From Macrostomum lignano (Eukaryota): 64,000 nucleotides of DNA. Position numbers and translations under genes: made by a program. The notes under the pieces are model-generated. The model ran no database searches and had not been told where the DNA came from. It worked only from the letters and a program-made list of their open reading frames with translations. Positions within the stretch are counted from its first letter, which is position 1, and every line of letters starts with the position of its first letter. This document shows positions 1 to 63,404 of the stretch, in pieces. Location: positions 1,116,001 to 1,180,000 of the forward strand of contig NIVC01000038.1 of the NCBI GenBank assembly GCA_002269645.1, written 5' to 3'.

Positions 1-507
1 GCTCCTTAATGTTAGACATGGTGGCTCTTTAATGTTAGACATGGTGACTCTTTAATGTTAGACATGGTGGCTCTTTAATGTTTGACATGAAGTCACATAT
101 ACAGTATGTTGGACATGGTGGCTCTTTAATGTTAGACATGGTGGCTCTTTAATGTTCGACATGGTGGCTCTTTAATGTTAGACATGGTGGCTCTTTAATA
201 TTCGACATGGTGGCTCTTTAATGTTAGACATGGTGGCTCTTTAATGTTCGACATGATGACTCTTTAATGTTTGACATGGTGGCTCTTTAATGTTTGACAT
301 GGTGGCTCTTTAATGTTCGACATGATGGCTCTTTAATGTTTGACATGAAGTCACATATATGTTCGACATGGTGGCTCTTTAATGTTAGACATGGTGGCTC
401 TTTAATGTTCGACATGGTGGCTCTTTAATGTTCTACATGGTGGCTCTTTAATGTTCGACATGGTGGCTCTTTAATGTTCGATATGGTGGCTCTTTAATGT
501 TTGACAT
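1..507. repeat. 23-bp minisatellite (GACATGGTGGCTCTTTAATGTTA), truncated by the window start
   Basis: About 21 tandem near-identical units read directly from the sequence. Confidence 0.97.
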
Positions 508-570
508 TGTGCTTTTTTGTGTTTAGCATTTTGTGTTTTTAAGGTTTTTGAATAAAAAAATCTTTTTGCA

Positions 571-635
571 CAGCTAAGATTCGAACCCAGGTCGCTGCAT
601 TAGCAGTCCAGTCTGTTCGCATCTATGCTATCTCT
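571..635 (-). mobile_element. tRNA-derived (SINE-like) fragment
   Basis: Minus strand reads GAGATAGCATAGATGCGAACAGACTGGACTGCTAATGCAGCGACCTGGGTTCGAATC. It has a B-box (GGTTCGAATC) and a tRNA-Ser(GCT)-like anticodon arm, but the cloverleaf is degenerate. Confidence 0.55.
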
Positions 636-1009
636 TGTCAATTGGAGTACATGAATTGTGGCCCTTATAATTAAATTCTTATAGCAAATCGGTTAGAGTA
701 AAAAGTTATGACATAATCAATTTCTCAGTCAGCCAGTATCAGTCTCAATTCAAGTTAGCAATATGGTTACGCAATTACAATCAAGTCTTGTGTGCATTTC
801 TTCGGCACTGTTTTGAACTTGTTGTGATGCAATCATTACCACAATCAGAATTCAGCCAGTCAGTTTTTTCTCTAGCATTCTTAAAATGCATTTTAAGTCG
901 AAAATTTTGCTTGACCTTTGCAAAAAAGCATGTTTTTCGAATATTTAATCCCTTTAGCATTTAGCAATTTCTTAGCCAAGATGCATGTACCGTGCCAGGA
1001 AAATTTCTG

Positions 1010-1102
1010 AATGAATGGTGCAAGTTTGAAGAAAATCGGTTGAGCCATTTTTTCCGAAATCTATCGCATACCCACAGACAACTCATTTTTAGTATATAGG
1101 AT
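1010..1102 (+). mobile_element. possible 3' end of a non-autonomous Helitron/Helentron-like (HINE/DINE-like) element
   Basis: AAAATCGGTTGAGCCATTTT ... CATACCCACAGACA ... TTTTTAGTATATAGGAT resembles the stereotyped 3' ends of such elements. Pattern recognition only. Confidence 0.35.
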
Positions 1103-1153
1103 TCGGACCCCTAGAACAGGGGTAGAGAGATAATCCTTCTCTCTGTATGCAAA

Positions 1154-4100
1154 ATGGCTAAACGCAGCGCAGCATCGACCACTTTCCTGGCTGACAAGAG
1201 GCAACGTTTTTATGGTAAGTTTTAATTAATTTCTGACATCAGTCTAGACGGGTTTTGAGTTGCTGCAGCAGGGAGCTTCTATGAATTGACAGGGACAGGA
1301 GCAAGAGGGGCTCGATAGAGAGTTGAAAAGAGCAGGTTAGACAGGCGGGGTTAACAAAGAGTTTAGGGGTTTGTCGCTGTGACAGCTTCAGGAGCATGCG
1401 GGAATTCAGAGTGCTGCGACAGGGGCTTACGAGTTTGAGTAGGGAAGGCGCGCAAACAAATAGCAGGCCGGATAACAGCTGCGGGCGGGGGTTAAAAAAT
1501 TGCAGAGCGTTTCAGCAGCAGGGTCTACGCGCAAGAGGTTATGTGGGAACACAAACAATGAGCCAGACCGGTAAAAAATGGTGGGCGCTCTGACAGCTGC
1601 AGGAGCATGCGGGAATTCAGAGTGCTGCGACAGGGGGCTTACGAGTTTGAGTAGGGAAGACGCGCAAACAAAGAACCAGGCTGGATGCGGGCTGGGGTTA
1701 AAAAATTGCAGACGCGTGTCGGGAGGAGGCATGAGTGCGAGGGGTTATGGGGGAGCGCAAACAAAGAACCAGGCTGGATGCGGCTAGGGTTAAAAAAAAT
1801 TGCAGAGCGTTTCAGCAGCAGGGCTTGTGCGGGAGGGGTAGCGCAAACAATGAGCCAGGCGGGATGCGGCTAGGGTTAAAAAAAATTGCAGAGCGTTTCA
1901 GCAGCAGGGCTTGTGCGGGAGGGGTAGCGCAAACAATGAGCCAGGCAAATGCGGCTGGGGTTAAAAAAATTGCAGACGCGTCTCGGCAGGGGGCATGCGT
2001 GCGAGGGGTTATGGGGGAGCGCTAACAAAGAGCCAGGCGGGATGCGGCTGGGGTTAAAAAAATTGCAGAGCGTGTCGGCGGGAGGGCCTGAGCGCAAGGG
2101 AGGAGCGTGAACAATGAGTCGGTTGGAGTCTGATCCTTGGGGTGCCACGAATTGACAGATTCTTCTGGTTTTTTATCTCCTTGTGTTTTTTCAGACGCGT
2201 TTGTCCCGCCAACACAGCCGGAATCTGTTACCGGACCGGGTGAGTTATCCAGCCCCCCATTCCCTAGACAGACCGGGCTGACTCACACCCCCATTCGTTC
2301 CATGCAGGTTTCACGGCCCGGCTGGATAATCAGCGCGACCTGCCCAAGTTTAGGGCAAAGGGTGTTGAATATGTTGTGAAGTTAGATGACACCGAAGATT
2401 TACGCGAGACATTTGCCAGTATGCTCGATGTCTTTAAGCAAGATTTGGCCGGCGAGGATTTCATGGCTGCGAAATTCGAGAGCGATAACATGCTCAAAGC
2501 GGCTCATACTCCCCCGGTGCGTGCAGCCCGCATGACAGCAGAGTTGTTGTTTAAGCACATTGACAAGATTGTGCAGTCGGATGCAACCGTATTAAGCAAC
2601 AACTTTTCTATCCGACTGCTAAAGGCCTGGGTGCCTCGAGGTGGTTGTGCCCTCGAGAACAAGCATCTAGAAGAGCGGCACGCCTTCTCCCGCCACTATG
2701 TCCGCATCAACAACACGGACAAGAGGTGCCTGCTGCGAGCGCTTGTTGTCGCATGCGCCTACCTGCAATTTGTGGCCAAGCGCATCACCGAGGATGTGTG
2801 GCGCAGGATCAAGACCAATTCGCCCAAGCAGACTAAGCTGGCGACTGAGCTGCAAGTCGAAGCAGGCCTCTACACGGTAAGTTGTGCACTAGTATCAGTA
2901 TCATGGAATACTAAAAGATATATTTTCTGATAAGAATTTTTACGCAGTATCATGGAATACTAAAAGAAATCTTACATAGTACCAGGGAATACTAAAAGAA
3001 TTTTTACACAGTATCATGGAATACTAAAAGATATATTTTCCGATAATATTTTTACATAGTATCAGGGAATACTAAAAGAAATATTTTACCCCCACACAGA
3101 CTCATCAAATCGTCTCGCAGGCTGGTCCTTTCGGGCTGGATGCACTGCCCGAAGCGATCTGTTCCCTGAACCGGCTGCATCCTGGCCACAACTTTGGTGT
3201 ACGCGTGTACCGGGCAGAGGAGGCCAACAGGTGCATCTTCAACCTGCCTGGCACCGAGATTCTGCACCTGCACCTGGTTGAACAGCACTTCAATGTGATC
3301 ACCAAGCTGCCTGCGTTTTTCGGCAGCCACCACTACTGTGCCAAGTGCGAGATGGCCTATGATAGCGACCCCGCCAAGCACAAGTGTGTGGATGCCTGTA
3401 GCACCTGCAAGACTCCGGGCTCTAACTGCAAGGTCAACCGCGCATATGTAAGATGCCAGGATTGCGGGCTAAACTGTTATAATGCTCAGTGCCTAGAGAA
3501 TCACAAGCGCAAGAATAAGGCGGGCAGATCTCGCTGTGATTCAGTCCACGTTTGCGGCACGTGCGGCTATCTAGAAGAACTAAAAGTAGGCCAAGCCCCC
3601 GAGCATCAGTGTGGTTACGCCAAGTGCCCAGTCTGCAAGCAGTACGACGAAACTGCCACCCACGAGTGCTTTGTCACCCCGCCCAAAGCCAAAGAGTCTA
3701 GCGCCCCGTAAGTTTACTATGATTTTGAGACGTACGTGGACTCGGGAAAGCAGCACCGGGTACACTTGGTTACGGCAGCTACCTCCTGCGAGGCGTGTCC
3801 CAAACTCTTCCCCAGGCCCCGCTGCGGCGCGTGCGGGGGACTACACAGCTCAGCCAATTGCATTGCGGGACGCGATTTGGCGCGCGATTTTACGAGCTGT
3901 GTGTCCCACAGCGACTGTGCCTGCGGGATGCGAGAGTTTGTATCCGTCGGGCCGCACTCTATAGACGCTTTTTACTGCTGGTTGACTACACTGTTCAAGC
4001 AGGGAGCTATTGCTATAGCGCACAATGGCTCTGCGTACGATGCATTCCTCCTGCTCGGCGCCCTACTCAATGGCCTGGCCAAGAAGAAGCCGCAGGTGAT

Positions 4101-5061
4101 TTTCCAAAACAGCCGCCTAATGTATATGAAGTGCGACAAGATCGCATTCAAGGACAGCCTCAACTTTATCCCTATTGGTCTGGCGCAATTCCCAAAGGCG
4201 CTTGGTTTGGGCACCCAACTGACCAAGGGAGATTTCCCGCACGTGTTTAATCAGCCAGAAAACTGGGGCTACGTGGGGCCCTACTGCTCAATTGAAATGT
4301 ACGGAGGCAAGAAAAACAAGCAGCACGACTCTATCACAGACTGGCTGGCCAAGCAGGAGGGTCGAGTGTTTGATTTCAATAAGGAGTACCTGGACTATTG
4401 CCTGCAGGACACGCTAATTTTGCGGGAAGGCTGTCTAAAGTACGCCCGCCTGATTAAGGACATTTGCGGACTGGACGCATTTGTTCAATCCAACACCATT
4501 GCGGGCTTGGCTATGGCAGTATTCACCACCAAGTTTATGGAGCCCAACACTCTTGGGGTGATTTCCCGCCGATCGGATGTACAGTCGCACAAGGCGCGGT
4601 GCTGGCTTGCACATTTGAATGCAACCGAGTTTGGCGGCAGGTTGAGGACAGCGGACTCGGGCGGCGAGGCTTTTGCCATGGGTCGTAAGGTGGACGGCTT
4701 CGACTCGGAGACTAGGACGGTGCTGCAGTTTCACGGCTGCTTCTTCCACGGTTGCCCAAAGTGCTTCCCCAATGGCGACGTGCTGCACCCGCTCAAGAAC
4801 CAGCCAATGCGGGCAATTTATGAAGAGACTGAGCGCTTCACTCGCCTGCTCTCTACCGCCTACAATGTGCGTGTCATGTGGGAGCACGACTATCAGGACG
4901 AGGGAGCGCCAGTCCAGCAGCCTATTCGCCTGGAGGATGCCCTGTTTGGCGGACGCACCGAGGCTTTTGTCCCGCACGCCGAGGCCACCGAGACTGTGCA
5001 GCTGCGCTATCGGGATGTGGTAAGTTTGTACACTTTTCAAAGTTTTTTCAAAATTTCTCAT

Positions 5062-5099
<38 letters not shown>

Positions 5100-6517
5100 G
5101 ACTTGTGTTTGAGTTTGGCCTACTTACCCCCCTAGGTGTCGCTCTACCCGACTGTCAACAAGTTTGACAAGTACCCCGTCGGGCATCCGGTTCACCACCC
5201 CGAGCCTCATCTACTGGATGAGCAGCAGCTGGCCCGGTATTTTGGCATCGCCGAGGTGTCAATTCTGCCGCCAACCAATCTCCACATTCCGCTACTGCCC
5301 GCCAAGATTAGCAAGAAGCTAGTTTTCGGCCTCTGCCGCGTCTGCATGGAGACCCAGTGCAGCAGCGAGTGTACACACACTGACGCTGAGAGAATGCTCC
5401 GCGGCACGTGGTCGACCCCAGAGCTCCACAAGGCCCTGCAGTTGGGTTACAAGCTGCAGTCAGTTCATGCCCTGGCCTATTGGACCAAGACTCGGACCGG
5501 GCTGTTTGCAGATTATGTAAACACCTTTTTAAAGCTCAAAGCCGAGTCTAGCGGTTCGCCGGGGATGACTGAGGACGCCAAGGCTGCCTACATGGCCAGC
5601 TTTTTTGAGCGCGAAGGCGTCCGGCTGGAAAAGGTGGAAGAAAATCCTGGCCTGCGCTTTGTTGCCAAGATTTTTCTAAACTCGTAAGTCTGGGTTTGAA
5701 CAGTGGGGACCGTGTTTTTCTACTTACAGTAGTAATACTAAATCTTTTTTTCCCTGCAGGCTCTGGGGCAAATTCTGCCAGCGGGATGACTTGACCTCCA
5801 CAGAGATTGTGGACAGTTACGAGGCGTGGCTGCAGCGCCTGACAGACCCGTCCATCAAAGTCAAGTCGTGCGAGCCAATAGGAGAGTGCTTCATGATGCT
5901 TGAATACAAGCCCCGAATTGGTGTTGCTGGCGAGCGGGCATTCAAGTACGCCAATGTACCTATTGGAGTTTTCACCACCTCCCATGCCCGGCTGCGACTC
6001 TACGAGGCTCTGGAGGGCCTAGGAACCCGCGTGATTTACGCCGATACTGATTCGTAAGTTTTTCACACTGTCTGTCTGTCTGCTTCGCTCCCCTAAACAC
6101 TTTATTCTCCTCCTCCTCCCCAGGGTCGTATACCGGTGCTCTCCGGGCGAGTACGAGCCTCCGGGCGGATCGAGTTTGGGGCAGTGGACTGACGAGGTAC
6201 CTGCCGGCTGCCGCATGGTACAGTTCACCACGGGAGGCCCCAAGCTCTATCGCTATGTGGTGGAGAAGCCCGACGGGTCGCTGTACTCGGTGCTCAAGTG
6301 CAAGAGCATCCGAGTCACGCCCGAGATTTCCGAGCGGGAGGCGGAGCTGCAGGAGATTCTGCGCCACGGCGGGACTGTACGGCTGCCCCAGGCACAGTTC
6401 AGGCGCGACAAGGCCAGCTGTACAATTCGGACCCTGGAGATGGATAAGACATTCCAGCGCGTCATGACTAAGCGAGTGTATGGGTCTGGCAGCCGCCCGT
6501 TTGGCTTTCGGGAGTGA
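1154..6517 (+). CDS. polB: Polinton/Maverick-type protein-primed family B DNA polymerase, 7 exons, with one in-frame TAA at 3709-3711 (this copy may be a pseudogene)
   Basis: Exons 1154-1214, 2195-2239, 2308-2876, 3100-5019, 5136-5683, 5760-6053 and 6124-6517 total 3831 nt (1276 codons plus stop). All six GT-AG junctions are phase-compatible. Motifs: D-x-x-C (NNTDKRCLLRAL) and HFNVI, a Cys/His zinc array, Exo I YYDFET, Exo II AHNGSAYD, Exo III YCLQD, Vsr-like QFHGCFFHGCPKC, LFGGRTE, Pol A RDV/VSLYP, Pol B KIFLNS/LWGKF, Pol C YADTDS/VV, C-terminal KR...PFGF. Confidence 0.93.
1365..2110. repeat. about 87-91 bp G-rich tandem repeat inside pPolB intron 1 (1215-2194)
   Basis: GGGTTAAAAAAATTGCAGAGCG...GCGCAAACAA...GCCAGG...ATGCGGCT recurs at about 1490, 1696, 1787, 1873, 1958 and 2051. 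Confidence 0.9.
2890..3085. repeat. about 39-40 bp tandem repeat (AGTATCATGGAATACTAAAAGA...) filling pPolB intron 3 (2877-3099)
   Basis: About five copies read directly. Confidence 0.9.
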
Positions 6518-6829
6518 TAAGGCCATACGCCTCCCTTGACTGAGATTCCCCTGTCTGTGCGGCACTTGGGATAATAAAACCTATTTGGAAGCTCCCCTGG
6601 GGAGAATTCTCTTTGTATGCGGTCTGCTACCTCCACTGTACATTGGGGCGGTTCTGTTACTCCTCTCTGCCCGCACTGTACTCCGCTAAGGATCCCCCGG
6701 CCCTGGGGAGGAATTGAATTTCTCTATGTTACTCCGCCTGCACTGTACATTGGGATCCCCCGGCCCTGGGGAGGAATGCGGGGGCGTGTCTCTTTACTAG
6801 GAAGCCGGATATTTTACTTTGCACCTATA

Positions 6830-7310
6830 AGCTTAATTTTGCATACATATGTTGTATTATACTTAACTTCCAGTGTGTGTATTTTATCCTATGCATTGAA
6901 ATTTGTGCCTGCGGTTAATATGCAAAATGTAATGTTTAAAATCTGCCTACATTATATGCTATGTAATTTTCCTGTATTATACTCAATTTGCACCTACAGT
7001 GTATGTATGCACCTGCATAATTGAAATCGAGAGTGCGTATGTGTATTTCCACCTATGTTTAATTTTCCTGCAGTATACTTGAATCTGCCTACTACACTAA
7101 TATGTACCCGCTTTGTATTTTGCCTGTTTTACCGTCTGCCAATATAACGATAATATCATTATGTATACCTAAGTTTGTACACCTATATGCATTATGCACC
7201 AATATGTACATTTTAATATGCACCTGCATTATACCTATGCGCCTACCATGTATTTTTTATACTTTTTATGTAAATATACGCAATTTCACCTACTATAAGT
7301 AGTTTTCGTA
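6830..7310. repeat. AT-rich degenerate repeat block, copy A (paralogous to 9290-9835)
   Basis: Shares the 45-bp block ACTTTTTATGTAAATATACGCAATTTCACCTACTATAAGTAGTTTTC (7261-7307) and TGTACCCGCTTTGTATT with the copy at 9290-9835. Confidence 0.8.
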
Positions 7311-7339
7311 ATTTTGTGTGTTAATATCGCTGACTATAC

Positions 7340-7775
7340 GTATCGGTGTACACCTGTATTGGGCGAGTGTACACCTGTATTGGGTGAGTGTACACCTGGC
7401 GCCTGTGGTTGGGAGGGTCTACATATCTGGAGGGTGAGCCTGCGGCTCGGGAGGGTCGCCTCCAGCTGCGCCTGCGGCATACATATCGGTAGGGTGTACT
7501 TATCGGGAGGGTCTACATATCGGGAGGGTCTACATATCGGGAGGGTCTACATATCGGGAGGGCCGCCTGCGGCATACATATCGGGGGAGGGCGCCTGCGG
7601 CATGGGCGCCTGCGGCATGGGCGCCTGCGGCATGGGCGCCTGCGGCATGGGCGCCTGATTGGCGCGCCTGGATGGCGCTTGGCGCCACGCGCCTGCGGCG
7701 CGCGCGCGCCGAGCGCCAGCCAATGAGAGGCGAGGAGGGTTGACACCCACCCCACCTCCAAAAACGCCCGGATAC
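7340..7775. repeat. GC-rich modular repeat A (GTGTACACCT / CATATCGGGAGGG / GGCGCCTGCGGCAT units)
   Basis: Short tandem units, closely similar to 9860-10200 and 12555-12995. Confidence 0.9.
7700..7775 (+). promoter_or_regulatory. CCAAT-box plus GC-box-like module, duplicated at 12925-12995
   Basis: GCGCCAGCCAATGAGAGGCG(A/G)GG(A/T)GGGTTGACACCCACCCCACCTCCAAAAACGCCCGGATA is nearly identical in both copies. Function is inferred from motif resemblance only. Confidence 0.35.
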
Positions 7776-8423
7776 GGGTTCATATAGTAGTGCGGTTGAA
7801 CTTTCGAATTTCCGCCGGCGTTGTGGTCGCACATATAAATCCGGAAGTATCGCAGACGAATCACAACGAAATTCTTTCTCCTTGTTTTACTCCGACTGCC
7901 GGGGTCCTCAAATTCCGGGGGAGGGTAGTCATAATCGTCGTGCGGTCGTACAAATGGTAGACGCCGAAGATTCTGACACCGAAAATTAATTCGTCGATTT
8001 GTTGAGCTGATTACTTCCAGTAGGGTAGAGCTGCCACCACCGTAATTTAAGTATTACGGAACGAATAAGTCACAGAGATTTCTTTGAGATGAGAACTTTG
8101 GTTGTTTTATGCCCCACGGGCAAATAACGATCAAGATAGGCTATGGCTCGGGTTAATTGTTAATGAAGAAGGAATTATTGTCTTGGTGCTGATATTATTA
8201 TTATTATTATTATTAAGAAATCAAAGCAGCAGGCTAAACGTTATTAGGTTACTTATTGACGAAAGAGTTGCGGGTGCCGAGGTACGAGGCTAAGCTTAAA
8301 AGTCAAATGCTAGTCAATAAGTAATGAGCTAGATAATTAACGAGTAGGCAAAATAAATGACGTAAATGAGCGAAGAAAAGTGGAGAAGGAACGAGGAAGC
8401 AGAGCATTGAAGACATTACATGT

Positions 8424-8603
8424 ACATGTACACAAATTTACGCAAATGTACACACACACACACACACACACACACGCACGCACACGCGTATCCTGCAGCG
8501 CATCCTGCAGCGCAGCAAGGCAGGGAGCTCTTGCTGTGAATACGCGTGTGCATGCGTGTGTGTGTGTGTGTGTGTGTACATTTGCGTAAATTTGTGTACA
8601 TGT
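8424..8603. repeat. long inverted repeat / MITE-like foldback (arms 8424-8491 and 8540-8603)
   Basis: ACATGTACACAAATTTACGCAAATGTAC(AC)n...CACACGCGTAT pairs with ATACGCGTGTG...(GT)nACATTTGCGTAAATTTGTGTACATGT. Confidence 0.9.
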
Positions 8604-9289
8604 GGTCCTATATACAGGAAACTGTGTACATTTATGTGTACAATTATGTCTATGCGCTACGTTGTGTGTAGTTCGTTGACCTGCGTTTGTAAATACAGTT
8701 TATACAGTTTAGCCCGTGCACCGCATTGATGCCTACTTTTGTGCTGAGATACCTGCTTTTTATTAAATACGCTGCACCAAAAGCAAATTTTGTTGGTGCA
8801 TACTGTGTTTTTGTAGAGGTGGAGGCATGCTTTTTAATACATATGTCTTTAGTGTAATTGGGTGTGCTTCAACTTGGCTCGCGAATCTTGCACTATGGCT
8901 CTCTAGTGGAAAGTACTCTTACTTGTGCTGGTTGTGGGTGAATGTGGGGCTTTCTGCTTGACTTATTTAGTTTACTTGATGGTTAAATGAGGAGTGGGAG
9001 ATGACGCGCCTACCTCAGGGAGGAATGCAGCTCCGCGGTCTGATGCAGCGCTTTCTGTTACCCCTCTCCATCCGCACTGTACTTGGTCTCCGCTAGGGAT
9101 CTCCCCTTGGGATTAAGAGTGGGCGGGCCCTTTGTACTCGACCCTGGGTTAAAAACTCGCATTTGGAGGCTCTGGAGAGTTGCAGTGGGGTTCAACAAAT
9201 GTCTGATAAGATCTCTTGTGAGGGCGTGATACTCGTCTCGAAATAAAAAAAAACCTGAACAAGTGTTGGATGCCCTTACTAGTTGGCGG

Positions 9290-9835
9290 GTTGTTACCTC
9301 TACAATTGTGCATTATTTCTGTCAATATTTTCCCCTGCATTATGTCAATATGTGCTACAGTGTGTCATAATATGATATTTTTATGCACTAATATGTATCA
9401 TAATTTTCCTGCATTATGCTTGCTTCTGCCTCTACGATGTGTGTATTTTAGCCTATACACCTACATAATTTGAATCTACAGTGTGTGCATATGCACCTGC
9501 ATTATACTTGTATCTACTCTGTTTATGTGTATTTCAACCTATGTTTTACATTATACTAGCATCTGCAAGCGCCTACTCCACTAATAAAGCGATATGTACC
9601 CGCTTTGTATTACGATTTTGTCTATTTCACCTACTTTTCTGTCAATATATCGATAAAATGCATCTATATTGTGTGTTTTTTGTTGCTCATATGCTTAATT
9701 CTATATGTCTGTACACCTATATGCATCGTAATATGCATTATGCACCGATATTTACACCTACTGATATGTTTAATATGCGTTTTGCTTACTTTTTATGTAA
9801 ATATACGCAATTTCACCTACTATAAGTAGTTTTCA
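9290..9835. repeat. AT-rich degenerate repeat block, copy B
   Basis: Paralogous to 6830-7310; the conserved 45-bp block is at about 9788-9834. Confidence 0.8.
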
Positions 9836-9859
9836 CTAGCCTAATTTTGTGTTAATATC

Positions 9860-10200
9860 GTTGGTTACATATCGGTGTACACATACATATCGGGAGAGTG
9901 TACACTCATATTGGGAGAGTGTACACACATATTGAGAGAGTGTACACTCATATCGGGGAGTGTACACACATATTGAGAGAGTGTACCTTCAGTTCGGGAG
10001 GGGGCGCCTGCGGGATACATTTCGGGGGCCCGGACCGCGCTTGGCACCTGTGGCTCGCGCGCCATATGGTAGGGTGTACATGTCGGGTACATGTCGGGAG
10101 GGGCGCCTGCTGCATACATGTCGGTGTACATATCGGGAGGGTGTGCCTGCTGCATACAGGTCGGGAGGGTTGCCTGCGTCATACATGTCGGGGCGCCTGG
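9860..10200. repeat. GC-rich modular repeat B
   Basis: Same CATATCGGGAG / GAGTGTACAC / GGCGCCTGC units as repeats A and C. Confidence 0.85.
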
Positions 10201-11389
10201 ACTGGGCTCGAGTGTTGTACTCTTTGTATGAATGCATTCTTGGTGTGTAACTCCAGACCATCCCTTCCCTCCAGGAGCACTGCAAGTAGACTGGTATGGT
10301 TTGGTATTCGAGGTTGGCGCGTGTACGTAATATACTCTTTGTAATATTTACCTGACCTGGGTTTGTAAGGTTTAATAACATATAAATGACTACTGCTGAC
10401 TAGTTGGCGCATCTGGATGGTGTGATAATAACTAACGTATCGAGATTTCGAGAGAAATCCTAGCATAATACTGTCTGTCCGGCATGTGGAAAAGTATTTG
10501 CCCCACCTTCGCTTACTCATACTGCACACAGACAAAGCTTATCTCTTTTAGTAAACTGTTCGTGGTGGTTTAGAAGGAGACGATGGTCTTCCTGTATATA
10601 CCTCTCTATCCCTTCTTCGCTCGTAATAACTTCATAAATGCTCGCTTGACCAATGGCTGGTACTGAACTAATAATTCATACGATACATAATGCCTAATAC
10701 TTTCTAACTCCGTACAGCTCACAAGTTTCTACTCTCTACTCTATCAGTAACATTAAAATAAAAAAGGTAAAATTTGCTGGTTTTGTGCCTAGTTTACTTA
10801 CTTTTCTATGTAGTTTCTAGCTCGTATGTAGTTTGCTTACTTGAAAATGTCTGCTTTTTATTCAAATTTATGTGGTTTGAAGGTTTATTTTTGCTAAAAT
10901 ACCTGGTTTCTTATAAAAATTTCTACTCTCGACAATGATTGTATCAGCTATTTCATTAAAATAACCTACTTTTTGAATAAAACGTTGTATTTAACCTCCT
11001 AGTTCTTTTTTCAAAACATAATGGAAACCCTCCCTACACCCTGGAACCTCCTCAAGCAGCTTACATAGAGCATGCAGACCCCGAAACCCCCTCTAGTGTG
11101 CCCTGATTTCAGCGGTCTAGCGGTTAACATCTGTATTTTTACACTATATTTTCCTTCATACAGCAATACAGGAGGGTTTGGAAGAGTGAGTCTGGCGGGG
11201 GAGGGGGCTTGTGGGATGATGAGGATGCGTACACACAGTTTAGCCTGTTTTAGCCTACCTTTTGGGCTAATATACTTACTATTATTACTACTAGGTACTA
11301 TGTACATACTATTATACTACCCACTATTAAATATGCTGCACTAAATCCAACTTTTGATAATACATAGCGTGTTTTGGTCGATTCTCCCT

Positions 11390-12420
11390 CACGTCTCTGT
11401 CCCTACACGTGCTCTGCCCGCTTTGGTCTCTGTTTGTGTACCTCTCTGTAACGTCTCTGTACGCTCAGACTGGTTTCTCCGTCCCCGCACGCGCCTCTAC
11501 TAAAGTTTGCTGTTACCTACCCCTACACACTGCTCTCTGTCTCCCTCCGCGCACACCTCACTGCCCTTGCATGCAACTTGCATGCCTTGCATGCCCTGTC
11601 CTGCCCTCGCGTGGGTCCCTGTCTATACATAGCTACTGGACCCTACCTCTCTGTGCCTTGCTCGCAACTCTGTCCCAGGCCCCCTTCACACTTCTCTGTC
11701 CCGGGCTGCAACTGGCTGACACGCGCCTCTCTGTTCCCCAGCCTGCGTGGCTGCCTACCCCTGCACACTGCTCTCTGTCCCCCCTCCTCTCTGCGCCTCT
11801 CTATCATCCTATTCCTGCAGCTGACCGTGCCGTTCAGCTCTGTCCACGCGCGGCTCCACCCCTGCCCGTGTCTCACTGTACACTGCCCCCCCCCCCTGCT
11901 GCATGGCTCCCTTGTGTGGCTCCCTTACCCAGCGCGTTTGCTCCCTATCTCCCTCCTGCTCCATATGTTTCTGTTCCCTCACACTACGCACGCGTGGCCA
12001 GCTCTCTGTCCATACACATCTCTGCTCCTCCACTCTATCCTCGCGTGGTCCCTTGACTGTTCGCATGCCCCTGCATACCCTGCCTGCCTCTCTGTCCCCT
12101 GCACTGGGGAGGGAGCTCTCTATCCTCTGTACGGCTCTCTCTGTGGGGTGTGTGTGACTCACACTACCTCTCTGTCCTAGCATGCGCCTCTCTATCCGGC
12201 TCCTGCAGCAGGCTGTGTTGTTCACATCTCTTTCCACCCACCCTCTGCCCGTACACGCTCACTGTACAGGGCTGCGTCAGCGTCGGGGTTAAAACTTCTC
12301 GCTCCCTATGCTTCAACAGTATAACAACCTAGTGGCTGGCTCTCTGTCCGCCCACCCCTCTGCCCGTACACGCTCACTGTACAGGGCTGCGTCAGCATCG
12401 GGGCTGAAACTTCCTATACC
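11390..12420. repeat. pyrimidine-rich degenerate repeat (CTCTCTGT-rich) ending in a duplicated ~62-bp unit
   Basis: Recurrent CTCTCTGT(C/A)C motifs. CACCCTCTGCCCGTACACGCTCACTGTACAGGGCTGCGTCAGC occurs at about 12239 and 12353. Confidence 0.75.
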
Positions 12421-12554
12421 CAACCGTGTAGTGGCCTAGTATGGGCGCGACCTGAGTTCGATTTCGCTAGTTGAGATGCGGGTGAGAGAGGGGAAGAGGC
12501 TAGGTGGGGGGCAGGGTGTGAGGTATAGGGGGCCTGCGGGGTACGTATCGTTGA

Positions 12555-12995
12555 CTACATATCGGGAGAGTGTACACCTGTATTGGGAGAGTGTACACCT
12601 GTATTGGGAGAGTGTACACCTGTATTGGGAGAGTGTACACCCGTACTGGGGAGAGTGTACCTTTGGCTCGGGAGAGTGTACACTCGGGGCGCCTGCGGCA
12701 TGGGCGTCTGCGGCATGGGGCGCCTGCGGCATGGGCGCCTGCTGCTCTGGAGGGTGGGCATACATATCGGGAGGGTGTACATATCGGGGTACATATCGGG
12801 AGGGTGCGCCTGCGGCATACATATCGGGAGGGTGGGCATACATATCGGGAGGGTGCGCCTGCGGCTGGTCGGCGCTTGGCGCCACGCGCCTGCGGCTGGT
12901 CGGCGTTTGGCGCCACGCGCCTGCGGCGCGCGCGCGCCAGCCAATGAGAGGCGGGGTGGGTTGACACCCACCCCACCTCCAAAAACGCCCGGATA
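12555..12995. repeat. GC-rich modular repeat C
   Basis: Closely parallels 7340-7775, including the terminal CCAAT module. Confidence 0.9.
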
Positions 12996-13208
12996 AATGC
13001 ACGTATAGTAGTCCCGCCTGAACGGACCCTGCAAGGTGAACAGCAGGACGTCCTGAACAGGTTGGGGGCAGTAGAACTCTGCCCGGATCACGTGGCCCCG
13101 CCAGTTGAAGTCGCCGCCGGCGCACGATGGTGGACGGGCTCGCTTATACATTGACAGACGGTTAAAGGACGCTGCTAGCGCCCCTGACCAGGCGGGCGGG
13201 TGTGTCTT

Positions 13209-13850
13209 TTAGGGAACTGTCCCATTGGCGGGCCATCTGACTCCTTCCCCCTTCTGGCCCCTGTATGGTTGGTGGGAGGAGTTCTTTTTTGTAGTTCTTG
13301 TGGTTGGTGGTCCCTTGTGCTGTTCTGTATTCTCGCGAGGCCGAATCTTCCCTGAAAAACTCAACACCCGATGGAAATCAGCAAATTTTCTCACCTTTTC
13401 TTTGGATCGAGTCAATCGCCCCTAAATAAACTTTGATTGCTGCTAGATCCTACAGAATCCCCTAATAAGCACCCACTAAGTGTCCTTTTCTTACCCATCG
13501 TTTGCAACTCTCCAAACACCCACTCAAATTCGAGACTTCCGGATCCCCCGTGACTGCAGCCGCCGCCGTGACCATCCAAGGACTACCGCGCCAAGCAGCC
13601 CTGCCCGTCGGGGCGTCTGTGAAGGTATTTTTTTTCTGTTGCGCTGCCTCTGGATACTGTCAGCCCGGTCTCCCACTATTGCTCACCAAATATAACATAC
13701 CGTCTTAAATTCCGCTCTAAAAATTAACTCAACGTAGAGGCGGACAAAGTCTAGGGAATGAGGCCTGGCGGGGATGAGCGCCAGAAACCAAGGGGTTGCA
13801 TAGGTGATTTCATGCAGCCTAGGTTGCGTCAAATAATTATAATATAGCAT
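13209..13850 (-). CDS. spliced orphan gene, 4 exons, about 169 aa, function unknown
   Basis: Exons 13850-13701 (ATG, 50 codons), 13656-13495 (54 codons), 13449-13395 and 13351-13209 (TAA). Introns are 44, 45 and 43 nt (GTATGT..ACAG, GTAAGA..GTAG, GTGAGA..TCAG), all phase-compatible. The protein begins MLYYNYLTQPRLHEITYATPWFLALIPARPHSLDFVRLYVELIFRAEFKT/YPEAAQQKK. No family recognised. Confidence 0.55.
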
Positions 13851-14108
13851 CTAGTCTTTATTCTTTATCTGCATTCTTTATATTCGAGTTTTCTTCTTCT
13901 ATATTATATCTTCTATCTTCTATCTAAAACAAAAAAATTACGCCAGACTTTATAGTTATTGTATCCCTGTGTTTGAAAACTGTGTCAGTTTTGCATTGAT
14001 TGAAAAAAAATTAATTAAATCTAAGCGAACCTGCATCAGTTGATGATTCATTCTTCACGACACGCTGCAGCCCACCGCAAGCACAACTGACTTGTTACAG
14101 CTTGACCG

Positions 14109-14253
14109 AGGGTCGTTTCACAAACCCTAATTTTCACAACGTCGAAACCAGAACCTTTCATAAGACCTATATTTCAGGTCTTATGAAATTTGGAGCTTAT
14201 GAAAGTTTGTGTCTTGCGAAGTTGTGACATTTAGGGCTTGTGAAAGCGACCCC
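14109..14253. mobile_element. 145-bp MITE with TIRs and 7-bp TSD
   Basis: Left end AGGGTCGTTTCACAAACCCTAA versus right end TTAGGGCTTGTGAAAGCGACCCC. Flanked on both sides by TTGACCG. Internal palindrome TTCATAAGACCT...AGGTCTTATGAA. Confidence 0.85.
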
Positions 14254-14583
14254 TTGACCGTATGGACTGTGTAGCGCCTTGTCCCCCACTGTCCCTGCAT
14301 TTAATAAAAGTACTTTCTTTTGAGTGCTCACTAGCTAGGTTGTCTATGGCTCAAACTCCAACTTTCGGTTTCAGCCCCAGACTAACTGTACTTTATTTTT
14401 ATTAAATAGACGCGATCGCCCCCCAGTCGATTGAACTAAATTGAACCAGCCGCTCAACTTAATCAATAATCTTCATCTTTTGGTAGCCAGCGCTAAAACT
14501 GCATTACTAAAACAGCTGCTGGAGCCACTCTACTTTGTGGTGTGACCACATATGTTGTAAATTACTGCCTTGAAAAACGCGTG

Positions 14584-14670
14584 CATCGACACTCATTCCA
14601 GCTCCATCGACACTCATTCCAGCCCCATCGACACTCATTACAGCCCTATCGACACTCATTCTAGCTCCGT
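14584..14670. repeat. 21-bp tandem repeat, 4 copies (CATCGACACTCATTCCAGCTC)
   Basis: Read directly. Confidence 0.9.
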
Positions 14671-14954
14671 CGAAGTTTTACAGTTGCCATCACTAACTGA
14701 AAAAATAGATAGAATTGAATAGAATACACCGATCGTATAATCGCTGACAATTTGCGCTGACGATTTCATTTTCAATCAGTCAATGAAATGATATTCCTCA
14801 AGTACTGCAAGTTTCCATTTATTTTGCATCTTCTATAACACTTGATAACAAAATACCCCTTAGAAGCCATACAGCATTTAGTCCGATTTTAAAATGAAGA
14901 GAAGAAAATATTCACGTTTTGGTGAACTTTTGCTATTCAAAAGGTTTGTTTAAA

Positions 14955-15965
14955 TTAATTCAACGTCATATCATTCCTCTCTGGATCGATGGGAGCTACG
15001 CGTTGCCCGCTGCCAACCACATCAGGTTGGCCCAATTCTCCTCTGCGTGTAGGCATACACCGCAGTAGGGCCACGAACTCCCGGCGAAACATGCTGGACC
15101 TGCCCAGGTACACAAACAGGTTCACAGTGGAGCTGAGCATCTGAGGCAGGCGCATGAAGTTGCCGAAGCGCGAACGGTAATGCTTAGGCAGCTGGGCCAG
15201 ATAGAGGTACCCAATGCGAGACGCTACCTGGGTCAGGACCAGCAGTCCGGCAATAATGGCGATGGTGCCGGCGCTCTCGAGAAGCTCGCCAGTTCGACCG
15301 CCAATATCCGCATTGATCTTGACCAGGTGCAGCACGCGGAACAGACAGGCCAAACTGAGCCCCAAGGCCAAGCAGCTGTAGGTGATGGTCGATACCAGCA
15401 GCCAAATGTTGTAGGCGTTGCCATAGACACCAGAATTGGTGCACATCGGCGTCACATTGTCCAGCTGGTCGATAGACAGCGACAGAGCTATCACGGAGTC
15501 GGCACAGGTGTACAACCAACCGGCCAGGATCACCAGGGCTCCGCAGCGATGCGAGTACCCGATGTACTTCTGGGGCCGGAGCAGAACAGCGCACCTGTCG
15601 CAACACAACGCCAGAGTGAACACCGTCGAGGCTACCAGACCGAATGTCATTGGCACGATGTCGGTGAGGCATTGCAGTTCAGTTCTCAGGTTGCCCTGGC
15701 CAACGTAATAATCGTTGAGACGTCGGCCAGTGACGTACATGTAGGCTGCGCCAATCCATGCATCCGCAATGGCCAAATTCGCCATGACAATGTAGTAGAA
15801 GCGGCGTCGCAAAGTTTTCGACGCGAAACAGTTTAGCGCGATCAGAATGTTGCACAAGGCGCAGCCAGCAGCCGTAAAAAACTGGGAATAGCTGGCCGGT
15901 AGGTTCCATTCGTACAACTGGATGCTGTCGGAGCGCAGCTCTTCTAAAACATCAGATTCGTTCAT
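14955..15965 (-). CDS. intronless divergent class A (rhodopsin-like) GPCR, 336 aa
   Basis: Seven hydrophobic segments, TM2 NLAIAD, TM3 DRC (DRY-like), TM7 VNLFVY (NPxxY-like). Confidence 0.88.
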   Translation of the reverse strand: MNESDVLEELRSDSIQLYEWNLPASYSQFFTAAGCALCNILIALNCFASKTLRRRFYYIVMANLAIADAWIGAAYMYVTGRRLNDYYVGQGNLRTELQCLTDIVPMTFGLVASTVFTLALCCDRCAVLLRPQKYIGYSHRCGALVILAGWLYTCADSVIALSLSIDQLDNVTPMCTNSGVYGNAYNIWLLVSTITYSCLALGLSLACLFRVLHLVKINADIGGRTGELLESAGTIAIIAGLLVLTQVASRIGYLYLAQLPKHYRSRFGNFMRLPQMLSSTVNLFVYLGRSSMFRREFVALLRCMPTRRGELGQPDVVGSGQRVAPIDPERNDMTLN

Positions 15966-16377
15966 TGCTTTGATTTGAATCCGATCTCTTAGAGTATACT
16001 CTCAGCTTTTCTGGAATTTGTCTCGCTAAATCTCTTGGCGTTGCTTTTGCCTAATATTTATATAAAATCGGCGGAATCCTGCGGGAAAATCAGAATGATA
16101 TAAAATGCCGCAGGTGGCATTGGGAAAATGCGCGGTCCTCGATCGTTACATGAAATTCTGACTTGCTAATTAATTGCAGGGATTTTGCCATCCCCGCTTC
16201 CCAGGTGAATCTTATATAGCCTAGAATTTTCAGACATACGCATGAAGCCTGCCGTTGGGGCATCTGCCGTAATTAATTCATTCATTCCAAGACACCACAT
16301 AATGAATAAAAGCTTATTACGAGCTAGTATTTGTAGGAAACGATCGTCGCTACAAGCAAGTTAGTCTCCCACTAATT

Positions 16378-18460
16378 GGTGTCCCATTAGACCACCACTC
16401 CAGCTCGCCACGCAGCGACTAATCCATGCGGATGCCGTGCCTAGGATGAGCTAGAGAGCTAGTTGACTCTTGGAAATAAGGTTGCGCAAGAAACTTCTAC
16501 CCAGGAGTGGAGCATCTTGGCACCACCAGTGAATCTTGCCGCACAGCTTTTGAAGCGCCCGCTTAGTTAACCGCGGCTTCAGCTTCATCCGCTGGACAAG
16601 GTTGACAGTCAAATCGATCTTATTCGTGTCGATTTTTACACCGAGGTAGGTGACGGTCTGGGCTGGGACGCTGCTCTTCTGCCAGTTGATGCCGAAGCTA
16701 AGACGCTGGAGAAGCCCAGTTAAAAACTCATAGGCCTCTTCACACTTGACTCTACTGTCAAAGGCAAGACCAAAGTCGTCCAACTATCCAACGACATTGC
16801 TAAAGCCAGACCGCTGCATAATCCGGAAAATTCTATGAAAGATGGACACGGAGGCAGCGGCCCCAAACATCAGCCGGGTGTCAACCAGGTAGCAGGGCGG
16901 GTCGGCTCCTTGGAATCTCCATTGTAGACCAGGCGGCGGGCAGCAGGAAGGGTGAATTCCAACGTAGCGGTAGGCATGCTTGATCGACTTTTGCCACAAA
17001 GCGGCCAGGACGGAACGATAGGCATGCTTGGTGTCGACTTTTGCCACAAAGCAGAGGATAATATTCATCGATAGACTGAAAGCAAATGCGATTTGACGGT
17101 AGTGACTTTTAATAGAGTTTCGATACGGAACGCTGGCGTCGTGGAGCAGCCGGATTGATGAGCTCTCTTGCCACTTCTCACTCTTCGCCCGCTGCTGAGC
17201 CAGTGCGCAAGGTTGTTTGCTACGTTGACAATGATCCAGCTGTCTGCATTCTCAACAAGGCTGCTTCTAAATGACTCTAAGCTGTTGCGTTTGCTTCAGA
17301 CTGTTGGTCCCTTCTGCTTCACAAACAACGTTGTGTTGAAGTTCTTTCATGTGCCGGGCTAGTGTCAAAACTTATGCTGATTCTATTTCGCGTCTTCACT
17401 CTCGGACTGGCCTCATTAACTTTTGCATGGGTTTTATGGCACTGTGCAAGTATGCCCGTCTGAATTTGCTTCCCACAAGCTAGTTTCTGCTGCCTCCCAT
17501 TTTCTGCTTTTACAGGTCCTGACCCTGCGGTGCGGCGGCTTCGGGGGCAGGCGGCTCATCTGATCGACTTGTCTCTGAAGGAGTCGACGCGGCTGACCTA
17601 CGCGTCTGTCTGGCGAGTCTGGTGTCGCTTCTGTTAAGGGCTAAATGAACGACCTGAGCAGCCCACGGTGGAGCTTCTCGTACTCTACCTCTCCGACATC
17701 TCTTTTCACCTTTCGTTCAACAGTGTTCAACTTCATCTGCCAGCGTTGAGCTGGTATTGCCGCTGCCTCGGTCTTGACGAAGTTGTACAGCTCTAATTTT
17801 GCCACTCATCCTAAACTGAATTAGACGGGATCGAAGCAAGTCGTGGACCCCAGCCACTAAGCAACCGCTCCGACCGGAGCATTTGATGCGCATTCACCAG
17901 CAGATTCTGCTCTGCGGGCTCCTGTGGGCTCTCGTGCTCACGGGCTGGCTGACATGCTTCGCCTCGGTAATCTGTGCGCCCGAAAGAAATTTAGTGACTC
18001 GGCGAGCGAGTTCAAGATCTCTGACGTCAAGTTGAGCCGTGCTGGTGTTACCATCTATATAGCTCGTTCAAAGAAAGTGCAGTTCGGTGAGCGCGTTCAC
18101 ATCATCCAGCTCCCGGTCATTTGCCCGAGCTCAGCAGCGGCTCTTGAAGTGTGTCCTGTGGCTGCGCTCCGACATCACTGGCAGCTGAATCGCCTTTCTG
18201 ATGCGTCTCAGAGTCTCCCCATATTCTCAGTTTCATCAGCGCCGCGATCTTGGCGGCCGCTGACTCAGAGGTGGATCCGCGACCGCCTGCATCGCCTGTT
18301 TTGCAAGACCGGACTGGAGGCTTCCAGCTTCTTTGCGCACTCGCGTTGTGAAGTGACGTTTGTTTTCAATGCTGGGATGAGCGTGGACCGCATCAAACTG
18401 CTGGGAGATGGGCGCAGATCGGCGGTAGCGGGTACCGACAGGCGGTAGCGGCCCGTCGAT
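16378..18460. mobile_element. degenerate DIRS-order (PAT/Ngaro-like) tyrosine-recombinase retrotransposon with an internal inversion
   Basis: RT lies on minus at about 17070-16378 (VDTKHAYRSV, LMFGAAAS, stop-interrupted DDF, YLGVKID, ELEWW). RNase H lies on plus at about 17120-17400 (YVDN, FFHVPG..ADSISR). The SAM-like domain and tyrosine recombinase lie on plus at about 17540-18450 (STRLTYASVW, LRLGNL, FFAHS, IKLLGD). Many stops and frameshifts. Confidence 0.85.
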
Positions 18461-19287
18461 CCATGTCAGCTTGCCTTGGGCTCGTACTGCTCTTCATTTG
18501 CCTCCTCTCCCCTGCCCATTGTTGTGCTCGCTGTCCTATTGTTATAATGGTCATATATTTCAACTACAAAACTGCAGGCCAAAACCAGTGATGCTATTTA
18601 TTAGCAGCCATTTTATTGTTTTTTTTCTCCGCAGGAAAATTCGAAACTCAATGGAATTTTTCTGCTGGGTCTCATCTATCTAATAATATGAGAAAGCAGA
18701 GCTGCTTTTAGCTACGCCTGCAATAAAAAAAACTTCAGAAAGAGTTACACAACTTGAATAGGGACAGTAGTTAGAGCTGGGGTCTCTCGAATCTTTTAGA
18801 CTTTCTTGTAAAACTCATTCATATAGAAATAGAGTCAAAGCCAATTTGTTACAATGCTTTAGACGCCAGGCCAGTGATGGGGTCAGTGCAGTGGGTATTG
18901 TGCGAGCTAAAAAGACTCAATAAGCTACCCCAGCTGTTCAACTCAACTCTACCCGCAGTTTCAAAATTCTATTTACAACCAAAGTTTCGCTTTGGTGAAT
19001 AGATAAAAACTACAGCAGGTGCAAATAAAGCTATACCAGTAAACGCTGCTGCTAGTAAAAAATTGCTCGTCAGAAGCTCTAAAGGAATTTTTTAAACTCA
19101 CATTGTTTCAGTAAGTTAGTAAACAAAGTTGTTTATATTTGCTATAATATTGTACGGGCTCGAAGAAACGTATGTAACTTTCCCCATTAACTTTTTAATG
19201 CGTAAATAATTTCCATAAGTTTATTAATACGTCAAAAGAGAGTCAACAAGGCAATAGTTCATTAGGTACACAAATTGTTCTAGTAGG

Positions 19288-19345
19288 TCCAGAATCGAAC
19301 CCCCGGCCTGTCAGTCGTGAGTTCGACACTCTAACGACGCTCTAA
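19288..19345 (-). mobile_element. tRNA-derived SINE head fragment
   Basis: Minus strand AGAGCGTCGTTAGAGTGTCGAACTCACGACTGACAGGCCGGGGGTTCGATTC has a B-box and resembles the head at 20036. Confidence 0.5.
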
Positions 19346-20035
19346 AGCAGTTACAAGTGAGCACTCCATGCGAGCGGCGAGTTCTCATTAGTACATGACA
19401 TGGACTTCTCCGAACCGCAATTGAATTTGTTTAAAAGTAGAAATTTAAACGAGGAAGAGAGAGATGAGGCTTAAGAAAATCTAGAGGGAGGACTCTATCA
19501 AGTTAGACCGGTTCCAATGAGTACGAGCCCGTATAAAACTACGGTCAAGCGCTTAGACGTCAGTTCTCTTGGGGTCTAAATACGTACTTTGATTTCATTT
19601 GTAAGATTGCTTTGAAAAGTTGTATTTGTTTCACTTTCAGAACTTCAATACATCAGATATAAAGACACAAAACCGCCGTTTAAAAAAATTGCTTGCGTCA
19701 CGCCTCAGTTGTATAATAACCCCCCCCCCCTTGATATTTTTGCTGCACCGAAATGGAGGAGAAGGTGCGCAACAAAAAGTTAGCCTGTGTTCTTAAATTT
19801 CGTGTCTGTGTTGCTTTGTTCCAGTGCAGCAAAGAAAACTACCCTGGGGAATACCTCACCCTCATGGTAGCTCGACAGGCGGAAAATTAGTGGCTTGGTA
19901 TTCCTACTGTTAAATAGCGTGAACTTTAAAAGGTCATAAACAGCTGAGTTGTAGCAGAAAACCTGCTGGGAGACTGGATGACTTTTTGTTTGCGGGCACA
20001 AGTTTTTTAAATAAAATAGCAAAGATAAAAAGTTA

Positions 20036-20330: not shown

Positions 20331-20457
20331 TATTTATGAGCAATAGTAATTTAACGTAATTATTGTAATATAAATGCTGTTAACCAGTTTTTAAAAAACT
20401 CTCTAACACTTATTTGCAGATCCTTACCTGTCAATCAGCAGCATTAAAGCCTCTTCC

Positions 20458-31796: not shown

Positions 31797-32400
31797 ATTG
31801 GCTCGACCGTTGTTCAATGAGGACCCGACAGACAAGCTCTCTACAATCAAGTAGAGAGAGATAAATTTCTTTTACCGCAACTGGACTCAGTACCAGAGCG
31901 AGTTCGGGGGGGGGCTGACGGAAACTACTGGATCGGTGAGTGCATCCCAGATCTGCTGCATTCGCTTGCTTTTCCAGTTCGGATTTCAATGACAAGCAGC
32001 GCCATGACGCCCGCATCTTCCCAGGACTGAATTCTCTCCACGCTCTCACTGCTTCTGGTCCTTGGAAGCTGAGGATCCTGATGAAAGCGTGGAACGACTC
32101 TGAGCACTGGGCCGAGTACTCCAGCTTCTCCGTGGGTCCCGAGTCCGACAAATACCGACTGAGCGTCTCCGGCTTCTCCGGCAGCGCCGGCGTCGGCGAC
32201 AGCCTCACCTACAGCAGCGGCATGCAGTTCAGCACGAAGGACGCCCATCACGACACCGATTCTACTAAAAACAGCGCAATCCGTTATAAAGGTGCCTGGT
32301 GGTTCGATGCGTGTCATCTCACCCACCCGAACGGAGAGTACAAAAACTCATCTGCTGCCATCGAAGGTGCTTATGCAGAGGGAGTTATTTGGCATGGAAG
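31797..32400 (+). pseudogene. fibrinogen-related domain (FReD/ficolin-like) pseudogene fragment
   Basis: YRNWTQYQSEFGG.DGNYWIG, intron 31936-32024, then GLNSLHALT...YSSFSVGPESDKYRLSVSGFSG...MQFSTKD...GAWWFDAC. The GWTVIQRR-like motif has decayed to GSTVVQ*. The 5' part is cut off by the LTR element. Confidence 0.8.
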
Positions 32401-32851
32401 GAGTTCGAGATGCTGCTTCTGTAGCAGCACCAGCATGACTGCAGAGAAGATGCCGCTGCTGCAACCGGCGAATTCGAGCGCTCAATCGGCTTCGAAGCAA
32501 CTTTGACATTTCCTGAAATTTGTGCAAACTGAAATATTCTGCTGCAGTGCGAGGACAGCCGCGAGATGAGGCGGTCGAAACTGATAATGAAAATACATGA
32601 GCTTTGAATTTCCACCTTGAGAAAAATAAAATTTCCTAATTTAAAATGTCAAAATTTGCGGTAGCGGTAGCGGTGCTCTATTAAAACTTGCGCTGACGCA
32701 ACACAAAGGAATTGGTTCAGCGGTTTATACAGTCGAGGATTTTGTCGCAATGATTGGAGATGTGACTTTTCTAGGAAAGCTTTTGATCGAGGCCTTTTTT
32801 GAGCATTAGCAGTGCAAGACAAACCATTTTTAGCATATGGATATAACACTG

Positions 32852-33432
<581 letters not shown>

Positions 33433-45935: not shown

Positions 45936-46164
45936 GATTTTGTGTATTGTATACACAGTATCGAATATTTATATTAAATATACTTCATATCAGGTTTCTT
46001 CCTGCATCCTGCAAAGTGCATGGTGTCATGGACCTTGAGCAAAACAAGCCTGCCTGCTTTGTCTTGTGCAGATCAATATTCTTGTGAATCGTCACACCAA
46101 TATCGACCGACTGTCAGTGCGGTGCTTTAAGTTTTTATCTGGCGGAATCTGAGACACGGGCTCT

Positions 46165-63346: not shown

Positions 63347-63404
63347 CTGCGCGAGGCAGTTGAGGATGGGATCGGGAATCTTTTGAGATAACTGCCAAAA
63401 AACG

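Follow-up and report, generated by a model that had tools for sequence, protein, structure and literature searches.

Introduction

Polintons/Mavericks (polintoviruses, alpha adintoviruses) are elements of 13-25 kb (10.1101/2023.08.22.554363) with target-site duplications of 5-8 bp, mostly 6 (PMC8097293). In vertebrates their ends are of the form 5'-(AG)3..(CT)3-3' or 5'-(AGT)2..(ACT)2-3', and 134 intact representatives were reported to lack introns (PMC8097293). In this work we analysed a window of 64,000 nucleotides from the flatworm Macrostomum lignano (contig NIVC01000038.1, positions 1,116,001-1,180,000), which holds at 1154-6517 a gene for a family B DNA polymerase of the protein-primed type (pPolB) interrupted by six introns. 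The copy in this window is broken and is best explained as belonging to an offshoot of alpha-type Polintons/Mavericks that has kept only replication, an element of 8.5-11.3 kb. It shares with them a pPolB of the DNA_pol_B_2 family, whose nearest matches outside M. lignano are 25-36% identical, terminal inverted repeats, 6-bp target-site duplications and a short tandem repeat at the ends; unlike them, it carries six introns and has no gene for an integrase, capsid, ATPase or protease in the four elements read.

Cytoplasmic linear plasmids and transpovirons are likewise Polinton-derived, having lost the capsid module and kept the protein-primed polymerase, which transpovirons use as a pPolB-helicase fusion (PMC11161782). 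Those replicons are fungal-cytoplasmic or parasites of giant viruses, whereas the M. lignano element is chromosomal, spliced and found in an animal. Ten loci of C. elegans also combine a pPolB with terminal inverted repeats and have no integrase nearby (10.1101/2024.01.15.575659); they are treated as remnants, while the M. lignano element has both ends, duplications, a two-gene plan, selection, splicing and many copies. Spliceosomal introns inside polinton-type elements are known from dinoflagellate polinton-like viruses, where they are copies of intron-generating transposons (introners) within full-length elements (PMC12166617). The introns of the M. lignano element are, in contrast, old, common to two subfamilies whose intron sequences are unrelated, and lie in an element that has neither a capsid nor an integrase gene.

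No description of this element was found in the literature searched, Repbase and supplementary files lying outside that search; the only paper found to contain both M. lignano and the word Polinton was an unrelated one on Tc1, and the available portions of 10.1101/2023.08.22.554363, PMC8502044, PMC6431247 and PMC5718144 hold no such element. Polinton surveys filter for intronless frames and for a pPolB beside integrase or capsid genes (PMC8097293, 10.1101/2023.08.22.554363, 10.1101/2024.01.15.575659), so elements of this kind would be missed or scored as dead fragments.

Gene structure of the window copy

Two exon stretches of the gene score above the Pfam cut-off for DNA_pol_B_2 (PF03175), and the predicted product is a protein-primed family B polymerase of the Polinton/Maverick kind. 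Its parts are given below in window coordinates, which are used throughout unless a prefix is attached; group B is the more distant of two subfamilies of copies, group A being that of the window copy, and X1, X5 and X6 refer to RNA-like contigs.

1154-1214 (+): exon 1, with start codon and basic N-terminus; junction 1 joined in X1 and X5
1215-2194 (+): intron 1, 980 nt, phase 1, degenerate repeats inside
2195-2239 (+): exon 2, 45 nt; 58% match to group B over 12 amino acids
2240-2307 (+): intron 2, 68 nt, phase 1; joined in X1, X6 and X5
2308-2876 (+): exon 3, probable terminal-protein region; vOTU-like Cys motif from 2712 (assigned by motif only)
2877-3099 (+): intron 3, 223 nt, phase 0; joined in X6 and X5
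3100-5019 (+): exon 4, with a vOTU-like His motif at 3286, presumed exonuclease motifs at 3718, 4018 and 4396, a nuclease-like insert at 4732 and the presumed start of motif A
3709-3711 (+): in-frame stop TAA in exon 4, just 5' of the first exonuclease motif, which breaks the window copy
5020-5135 (+): intron 4, 116 nt, phase 0, within motif A; joined in X1, X6 and X5
5136-5683 (+): exon 5, Pfam PF03175, 48.9 bits
5684-5759 (+): intron 5, 76 nt, phase 2, within motif B; joined in X1, X6 and X5
5760-6053 (+): exon 6
6054-6123 (+): intron 6, 70 nt, phase 2, within motif C; joined in X1 and X6
6124-6517 (+): exon 7 and natural stop
6573-6578 (+): AATAAA, candidate polyadenylation signal

The vOTU-like Cys and His motifs precede the exonuclease motifs, and similar motifs occur in 27/35 and 20/35 relatives, respectively, as judged by motif. 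The published domain order of pPolB is terminal protein, vOTU, exonuclease and palm (PMC11161782).

A sequence-only reading of the locus had proposed six introns at these positions in an open pPolB gene of 1276 codons. The introns were borne out, with phases 1, 1, 0, 0, 2 and 2, exons totalling 3831 nt, GTAAGT donors in five cases and GTGAGT in one, and CAG acceptors in five and TAG in one. Exon 1 does carry the basic stretch MAKRS...KRQR, a putative nuclear localisation signal. The open frame did not hold, since the in-frame TAA of exon 4 means that the window copy is not an open gene of that length. Among 29 other aligned loci this stop is common to only one, L002, a near-identical sister of the window copy that belongs to the same insertion (dS 0.004, right flank in common). 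The stop sits in the octamer GTAAGTTT (3708-3715), which is also the donor of introns 1, 4 and 6; as a cryptic donor it was rejected, no splice joint from this octamer being present among the 15 of 37 joints listed.

For junctions 4, 5 and 6 the flanking exon peptides, each compared separately, abut in relatives that encode the polymerase in a single frame (in P0059 at 971/974, 1156/1158 and 1252/1254). Several of these single-frame relatives, of 1280-1385 amino acids, sit on contigs of 4.5-4.6 kb, which leaves scant space for introns.

Splicing of the introns

Three studies each supplied one probable RNA run, and the contigs of these runs were compared with those of a DNA-like run, X15. All six GT..AG joints were seen in the probable RNA runs with exact gaps of 980, 68, 223, 116, 76 and 70 nt, junctions 2, 4 and 5 in all three runs and junctions 1, 3 and 6 in two of them, while the much deeper X15 contained none of the six. 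The earlier reading had called for RNA-seq reads across the six junctions, and every joint is present in these contigs. For intron 3, an alternative in-frame acceptor at 3120 was discarded because the RNA-like contigs use 3099. Between the long RNA contigs and the window the divergence reaches about 8% (47-48 mismatches over 617 nt); these contigs therefore derive from other, expressed copies, so that splicing is shown for the family rather than for the window copy. At the level of the family, the six introns are real and spliced by the host.

Ends and target sites

Group A copies are flanked by terminal inverted repeats, of about 1.4 kb in L031 and L038, and the two arms of L031 are 99.9% alike over the 1163 nt compared; the repeats of group B measure about 0.25-0.3 kb. 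Both groups thus have terminal inverted repeats within the 100-1500 bp typical of Polintons. A terminal motif occurs 138 times in the genome, against 0 for the control. The 33 group A end pairs that were built span 3.2-11.3 kb, and those 15 among them for which a pPolB is listed measure 8.5-11.3 kb. The ends of group B are its own, and its elements measure about 9.0-9.7 kb.

An exact 6-bp target-site duplication was found at 20/20 end pairs read (five coding A, seven non-coding A and eight B, chosen for having both ends found), and all 20 duplications are different. The ends in both groups read 5'-ACTAC..GTAGT-3', which is the reverse of the vertebrate Maverick motif and of the ends of L055/L056, a complete Polinton of the same genome described below. 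In 17 of the 20 elements the last 40 nt are the same at both ends, and these 17 elements have 17 different 40-mers.

Copies, subfamilies and selection

The genome search gave at least 98 dispersed pPolB matches, with 96 of 174 candidates scored. Group A copies are mostly 87-99% like the window copy in amino acids and group B copies about 64-66%. The 33 best protein matches all belong to M. lignano, one of them 100% identical, and the next best are those at 25-36%. A quick tree built from one stretch of exon 4 (50 rows, without the complete Polinton family of L055) unites groups A and B in a single long-stemmed clade with support 100.

Introns 2-6 have the same positions and phases in group B as in group A (2/2 copies read), so they predate the split of the two groups. 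The group B intron sequences are AT-rich and unrelated to those of group A; intron 1, read in one copy, is of phase 1 and 998 nt long. Ten loci of metagenome relatives were also considered, five of which gave short matches only. One of the ten, L074, whose pPolB is 33-39% like that of the window, has a clear intron, a 60-nt GT-AG intron in motif B (about 1169-1228) that lies a few bases off the position of intron 5 and is probably a separate gain. L073 and L079 show frameshifts or stops in the stretches viewed, and L080/L081 resemble L079.

The median ratio of nonsynonymous to synonymous divergence (dN/dS) over 792 codons is 0.061 (399/435 pairs with dS>0.05), and 11/29 loci are without a stop or length change in exons 3-7, a pattern that, by these codon comparisons, marks the pPolB family as one under purifying selection. 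The window copy, compared with the other copies except its sister L002, gives dN/dS values of 0.05-0.08, so its lineage stayed functional until recently.

Gene content

Cargo genes were sought by tblastn with seven integrase, capsid, ATPase and protease proteins from other Polintons of this genome. No match was obtained in the four elements read nor in window 1-20000, with six matches in the control L056. By eye, none of 73 capsid places or 150 integrase places lies inside a group A end pair, part of the candidates having been scored. A genome scan with Pfam Pox_A32 returned no matches; since genes of this kind do occur in the genome, this negative says nothing.

The sole other recurring gene is a divergently oriented open reading frame (ORF) of about 150-190 amino acids that resembles PC4. 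It lies 2.3-3.1 kb from the exon 4 match in 23/26 group A copies, and two group B copies (C157, C1263) have a form 43% identical no more than about 3 kb away. One homologue scores above the Pfam PC4 cut-off, and the six best structural matches to a model of the protein (predicted local distance difference test, pLDDT, 83) are human PC4, at E 0.005-0.02. The alignment of this small protein was made without P0088 and P0094, which are repeat-rich chance matches, and without the near-identical P0087, P0090 and P0091. PC4-fold proteins bind single-stranded DNA, and the partner gene may have such a role in the element. In L032, an extra frame of 360 codons (8580-9659, +) without a Pfam match above cut-off lies between the left repeat and the PC4-like gene.

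In replication and in the signature of its insertions the element behaves as a Polinton does. It differs from one in four respects: integrase, the module of capsid, packaging ATPase and cysteine protease, the length of 13-25 kb and the end motif. On these grounds the name Polinton-derived element suits it best.

Group A end pairs without a listed pPolB were non-coding in all seven cases read (11 more such pairs exist). Most of these non-coding derivatives are large palindromes, one of 9.3 kb, with the same ends as the coding copies. L051 (G000:C625:278480-287840), L052, L054, L035 and L036 are non-coding over 6.7-9.3 kb, and palindromes make up most or all of each. In L051 the self-complementarity is 98% across 9.3 kb, and these palindromes keep the family ends and exact 6-bp duplications.

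Other Polintons of the genome

Complete Polintons of several families, with integrase and 6-bp duplications, are present in the genome. L055/L056 (G000:C2506:58500-78499) is a high-copy complete Polinton that measures about 17.5 kb. Its pPolB frame, of 1211 amino acids, is intronless, and its integrase bears a phospholipase A2-like domain; it also has genes for capsid and ATPase, ends of the canonical kind and a duplication of 6 bp. A family with pPolB frames of 1469-1478 amino acids also occurs. The pPolB family of C393 was rejected as a helper: its end is absent from the stretch read and its polymerase has no match to the exons of the element.

L047, L049, L048 and L050 represent two further capsid-bearing Polinton families, and L047 ends in a hairpin-like inverted repeat of 100 nt (9415-9514). 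At G000:C271:279860-315971 a complete Polinton apparently interrupts, by coordinates, a group A copy: 34 kb separate the pPolB of that copy from its PC4-like gene, and the pPolB and integrase of another family lie in between. Dozens of ORFs of about 250 codons on many contigs are 30-33% like the PC4-like protein; some form inverted pairs 11-13 kb apart, some are in tandem, and they may mark other elements.

Discussion

With a probability of about 0.68, we consider the element to be an offshoot of Polintons that copies itself, relies on splicing by the host and uses a borrowed integrase. The host would transcribe the pPolB gene in the nucleus and splice it; the polymerase would then prime at the ACTAC repeats, from the terminal-protein domain that it carries itself, and copy a freed linear form by strand displacement, while the PC4-fold protein would coat the single strands. 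Pairing of the arms could keep both arms identical and yield palindromic defective copies; the matching last 40 nt within elements and the common palindromic derivatives fit such copying through paired arms. Insertion, the weakest step, would be carried out by a retroviral-type integrase borrowed from a complete Polinton. The protein-primed steps follow the domain model of PMC11161782, together with what is generally known of protein-primed replication. We also propose that, as the element spreads as DNA, introns once gained are retained.

Several observations weigh against this reading. A donor of the helper integrase was not found, both candidates with ends seen having the opposite polarity: L055/L056, the one complete Polinton read end to end, starts with 5'-AGTAGT, and so does the end of L047. 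The L055/L056 pPolB is moreover distant from that of the element (no tblastn match at E<0.01, best blastp E 0.005). Every copy encountered lies in a chromosome, and no free linear form was observed. The coding elements read for cargo number four, L032 without about 0.9 kb, and the end pairs of group A were built from 100 of the 138 terminal motifs, the other 38 being unlisted. In group B, about 3 kb of the left arm are without an assigned gene and L033/L034 yielded no PC4-like gene, so a divergent spliced integrase could hide there; one end pair of this group measures 14.4 kb (C126), its contents unread. The structural match to PC4 falls short of E<=0.001, and the types of the sequencing runs are guesses, none being on record as RNA.

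The 9-kb copies might instead be deletion derivatives of a complete, intron-bearing Polinton that still resides in the genome and supplies integrase and capsid, which we regard as unlikely. Such derivatives do form in the family (L035-L037, L051-L054), the genome searches scored part of the candidates, and the contents of the 14.4-kb pair bear on the same question; yet none of the 33 group A end pairs exceeds 11.3 kb, the capsid and integrase places (0/73 and 0/150, by eye) fall outside these pairs, and the reduced plan recurs in two subfamilies only 64% alike. That the element integrates unaided, through the nuclease-like insert of its polymerase or an unrecognised spliced gene, appears quite unlikely to us. 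Its end polarity, unlike that of the complete Polintons read, would suit this idea, as would the presumed nuclease-like insert near 4732 in exon 4 and the unexplained left arm of group B. Against it, the insert has no Pfam match, is present in most relatives and carries Q where 32/50 of them carry E, and the exact 6-bp duplication at 20/20 end pairs, as in L055/L056, is typical of the Polinton integrase (PMC8097293).

Bidnaviruses offer a model for a multipartite virus whose segments have the same ends (PMC8502044), and the element could be such a segment, or a satellite that is packaged, while a second segment with the same ends would carry capsid and integrase. Capsid and integrase genes do lie elsewhere in the genome, away from these pPolB copies, but the seven group A pairs read without a listed pPolB are non-coding derivatives and four capsid loci have no DNA in common with groups A or B. 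In the L047 family, one of two probes also showed a fragment of pPolB motif B at the expected place and the other showed no polymerase, so that this family probably has its own polymerase; we hold the multipartite explanation to be distinctly improbable. The sequence-only reading had offered domestication of the pPolB by the host as one of its two interpretations. The gene is indeed spliced, expressed and under purifying selection, which a self-copying element is expected to show as well, whereas dozens of dispersed copies with terminal repeats, 20 different exact 6-bp duplications and a broken window copy make a domesticated host gene highly improbable. The other interpretation, an intron-colonised Polinton lineage in need of host splicing, is supported, but the element is no full Polinton, given the missing integrase, capsid, ATPase and protease and the reversed ends. 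That reading knew of no described metazoan pPolB with as many introns; introns also occur in dinoflagellate Polinton-like elements (PMC12166617) and in one of ten metagenome relatives, and the newer part is the reduced anatomy rather than the introns alone.

The self-copying offshoot favoured here may even represent a separate class that has persisted for long: an animal replicon of two genes, nuclear and spliced by the host, the chromosomal counterpart of a linear plasmid, with its own end polarity, long separated from its Polinton parent, parasitising the integrase of another element (or using an unknown integration route) and supporting giant palindromic non-coding satellites. This wider proposal is tentative, and we lean somewhat against it. 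A spliced, expressed and selected polymerase in an element that has no integrase shows that replication and integration of Polintons can be separated in a single genome, and that a lineage of virus-like elements can come to rely completely on nuclear splicing. What may surprise specialists is a reduced, RNA-supported and selected two-gene element with reversed ends and no integrase. To our knowledge, excision, copying and insertion of a Polinton have not yet been shown in an animal, and the many young copies with element-specific matching ends are a natural system in which to seek the predicted protein-capped linear intermediate.

Genomic surroundings of the window copy

The window copy resembles other copies from near 1086 onwards. 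Its left end was not found, and hence its target duplication could not be read there; beyond the right-end motif at 7791 the copies diverge.

520-1103: very high-copy repeat, X15 depth up to 270,000 versus about 1,500
1086-1153 (+): upstream stretch common to other copies, probable promoter or 5' leader
6600-7791 (start approximate): right terminal inverted repeat, ending ..TAGTAGT at 7791, matching both arms of L031
8426-13012: portion of a non-coding derivative that belongs to this family and has its own end at 13012; 93% like L035 180-4771

The PC4-like partner of the window copy lies about 11 kb upstream, outside the window (G000:C38:1105665-1106084), and is adjacent in the sister copy, which suggests an insertion of about 11 kb after the duplication; the repeat at 520-1103 would be the end of that insertion.

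Farther along, the window contains a long frame with ankyrin repeats (20407-24456, +, 1349 amino acids), an ankyrin plus Mab-21-like set broken over several frames (53120-56997, +) and a frame with TPR repeats (57600-61340, -, 1246 amino acids), all possibly immune-type genes. Seven-transmembrane receptor frames, an aspartyl protease fragment of retroviral type, a fibrinogen C domain and a LisH/WD40 frame are found at 14955-16001 (-), 48675-50665 (-), 30249-31199 (-), 31940-32506 (+) and 38291-39076 (+). At 16500-18450, decayed stretches resembling a reverse transcriptase and a tyrosine recombinase were recognised by eye on opposite strands, and the two frames scanned there gave no Pfam match. 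There are no tRNA genes in the window. Minisatellite and microsatellite arrays occupy 1-520, 32842-33400, 38900-46970 and 61390-63980, with units of 23, 3, 32, 35-37, 10, 34 and 42 nt.

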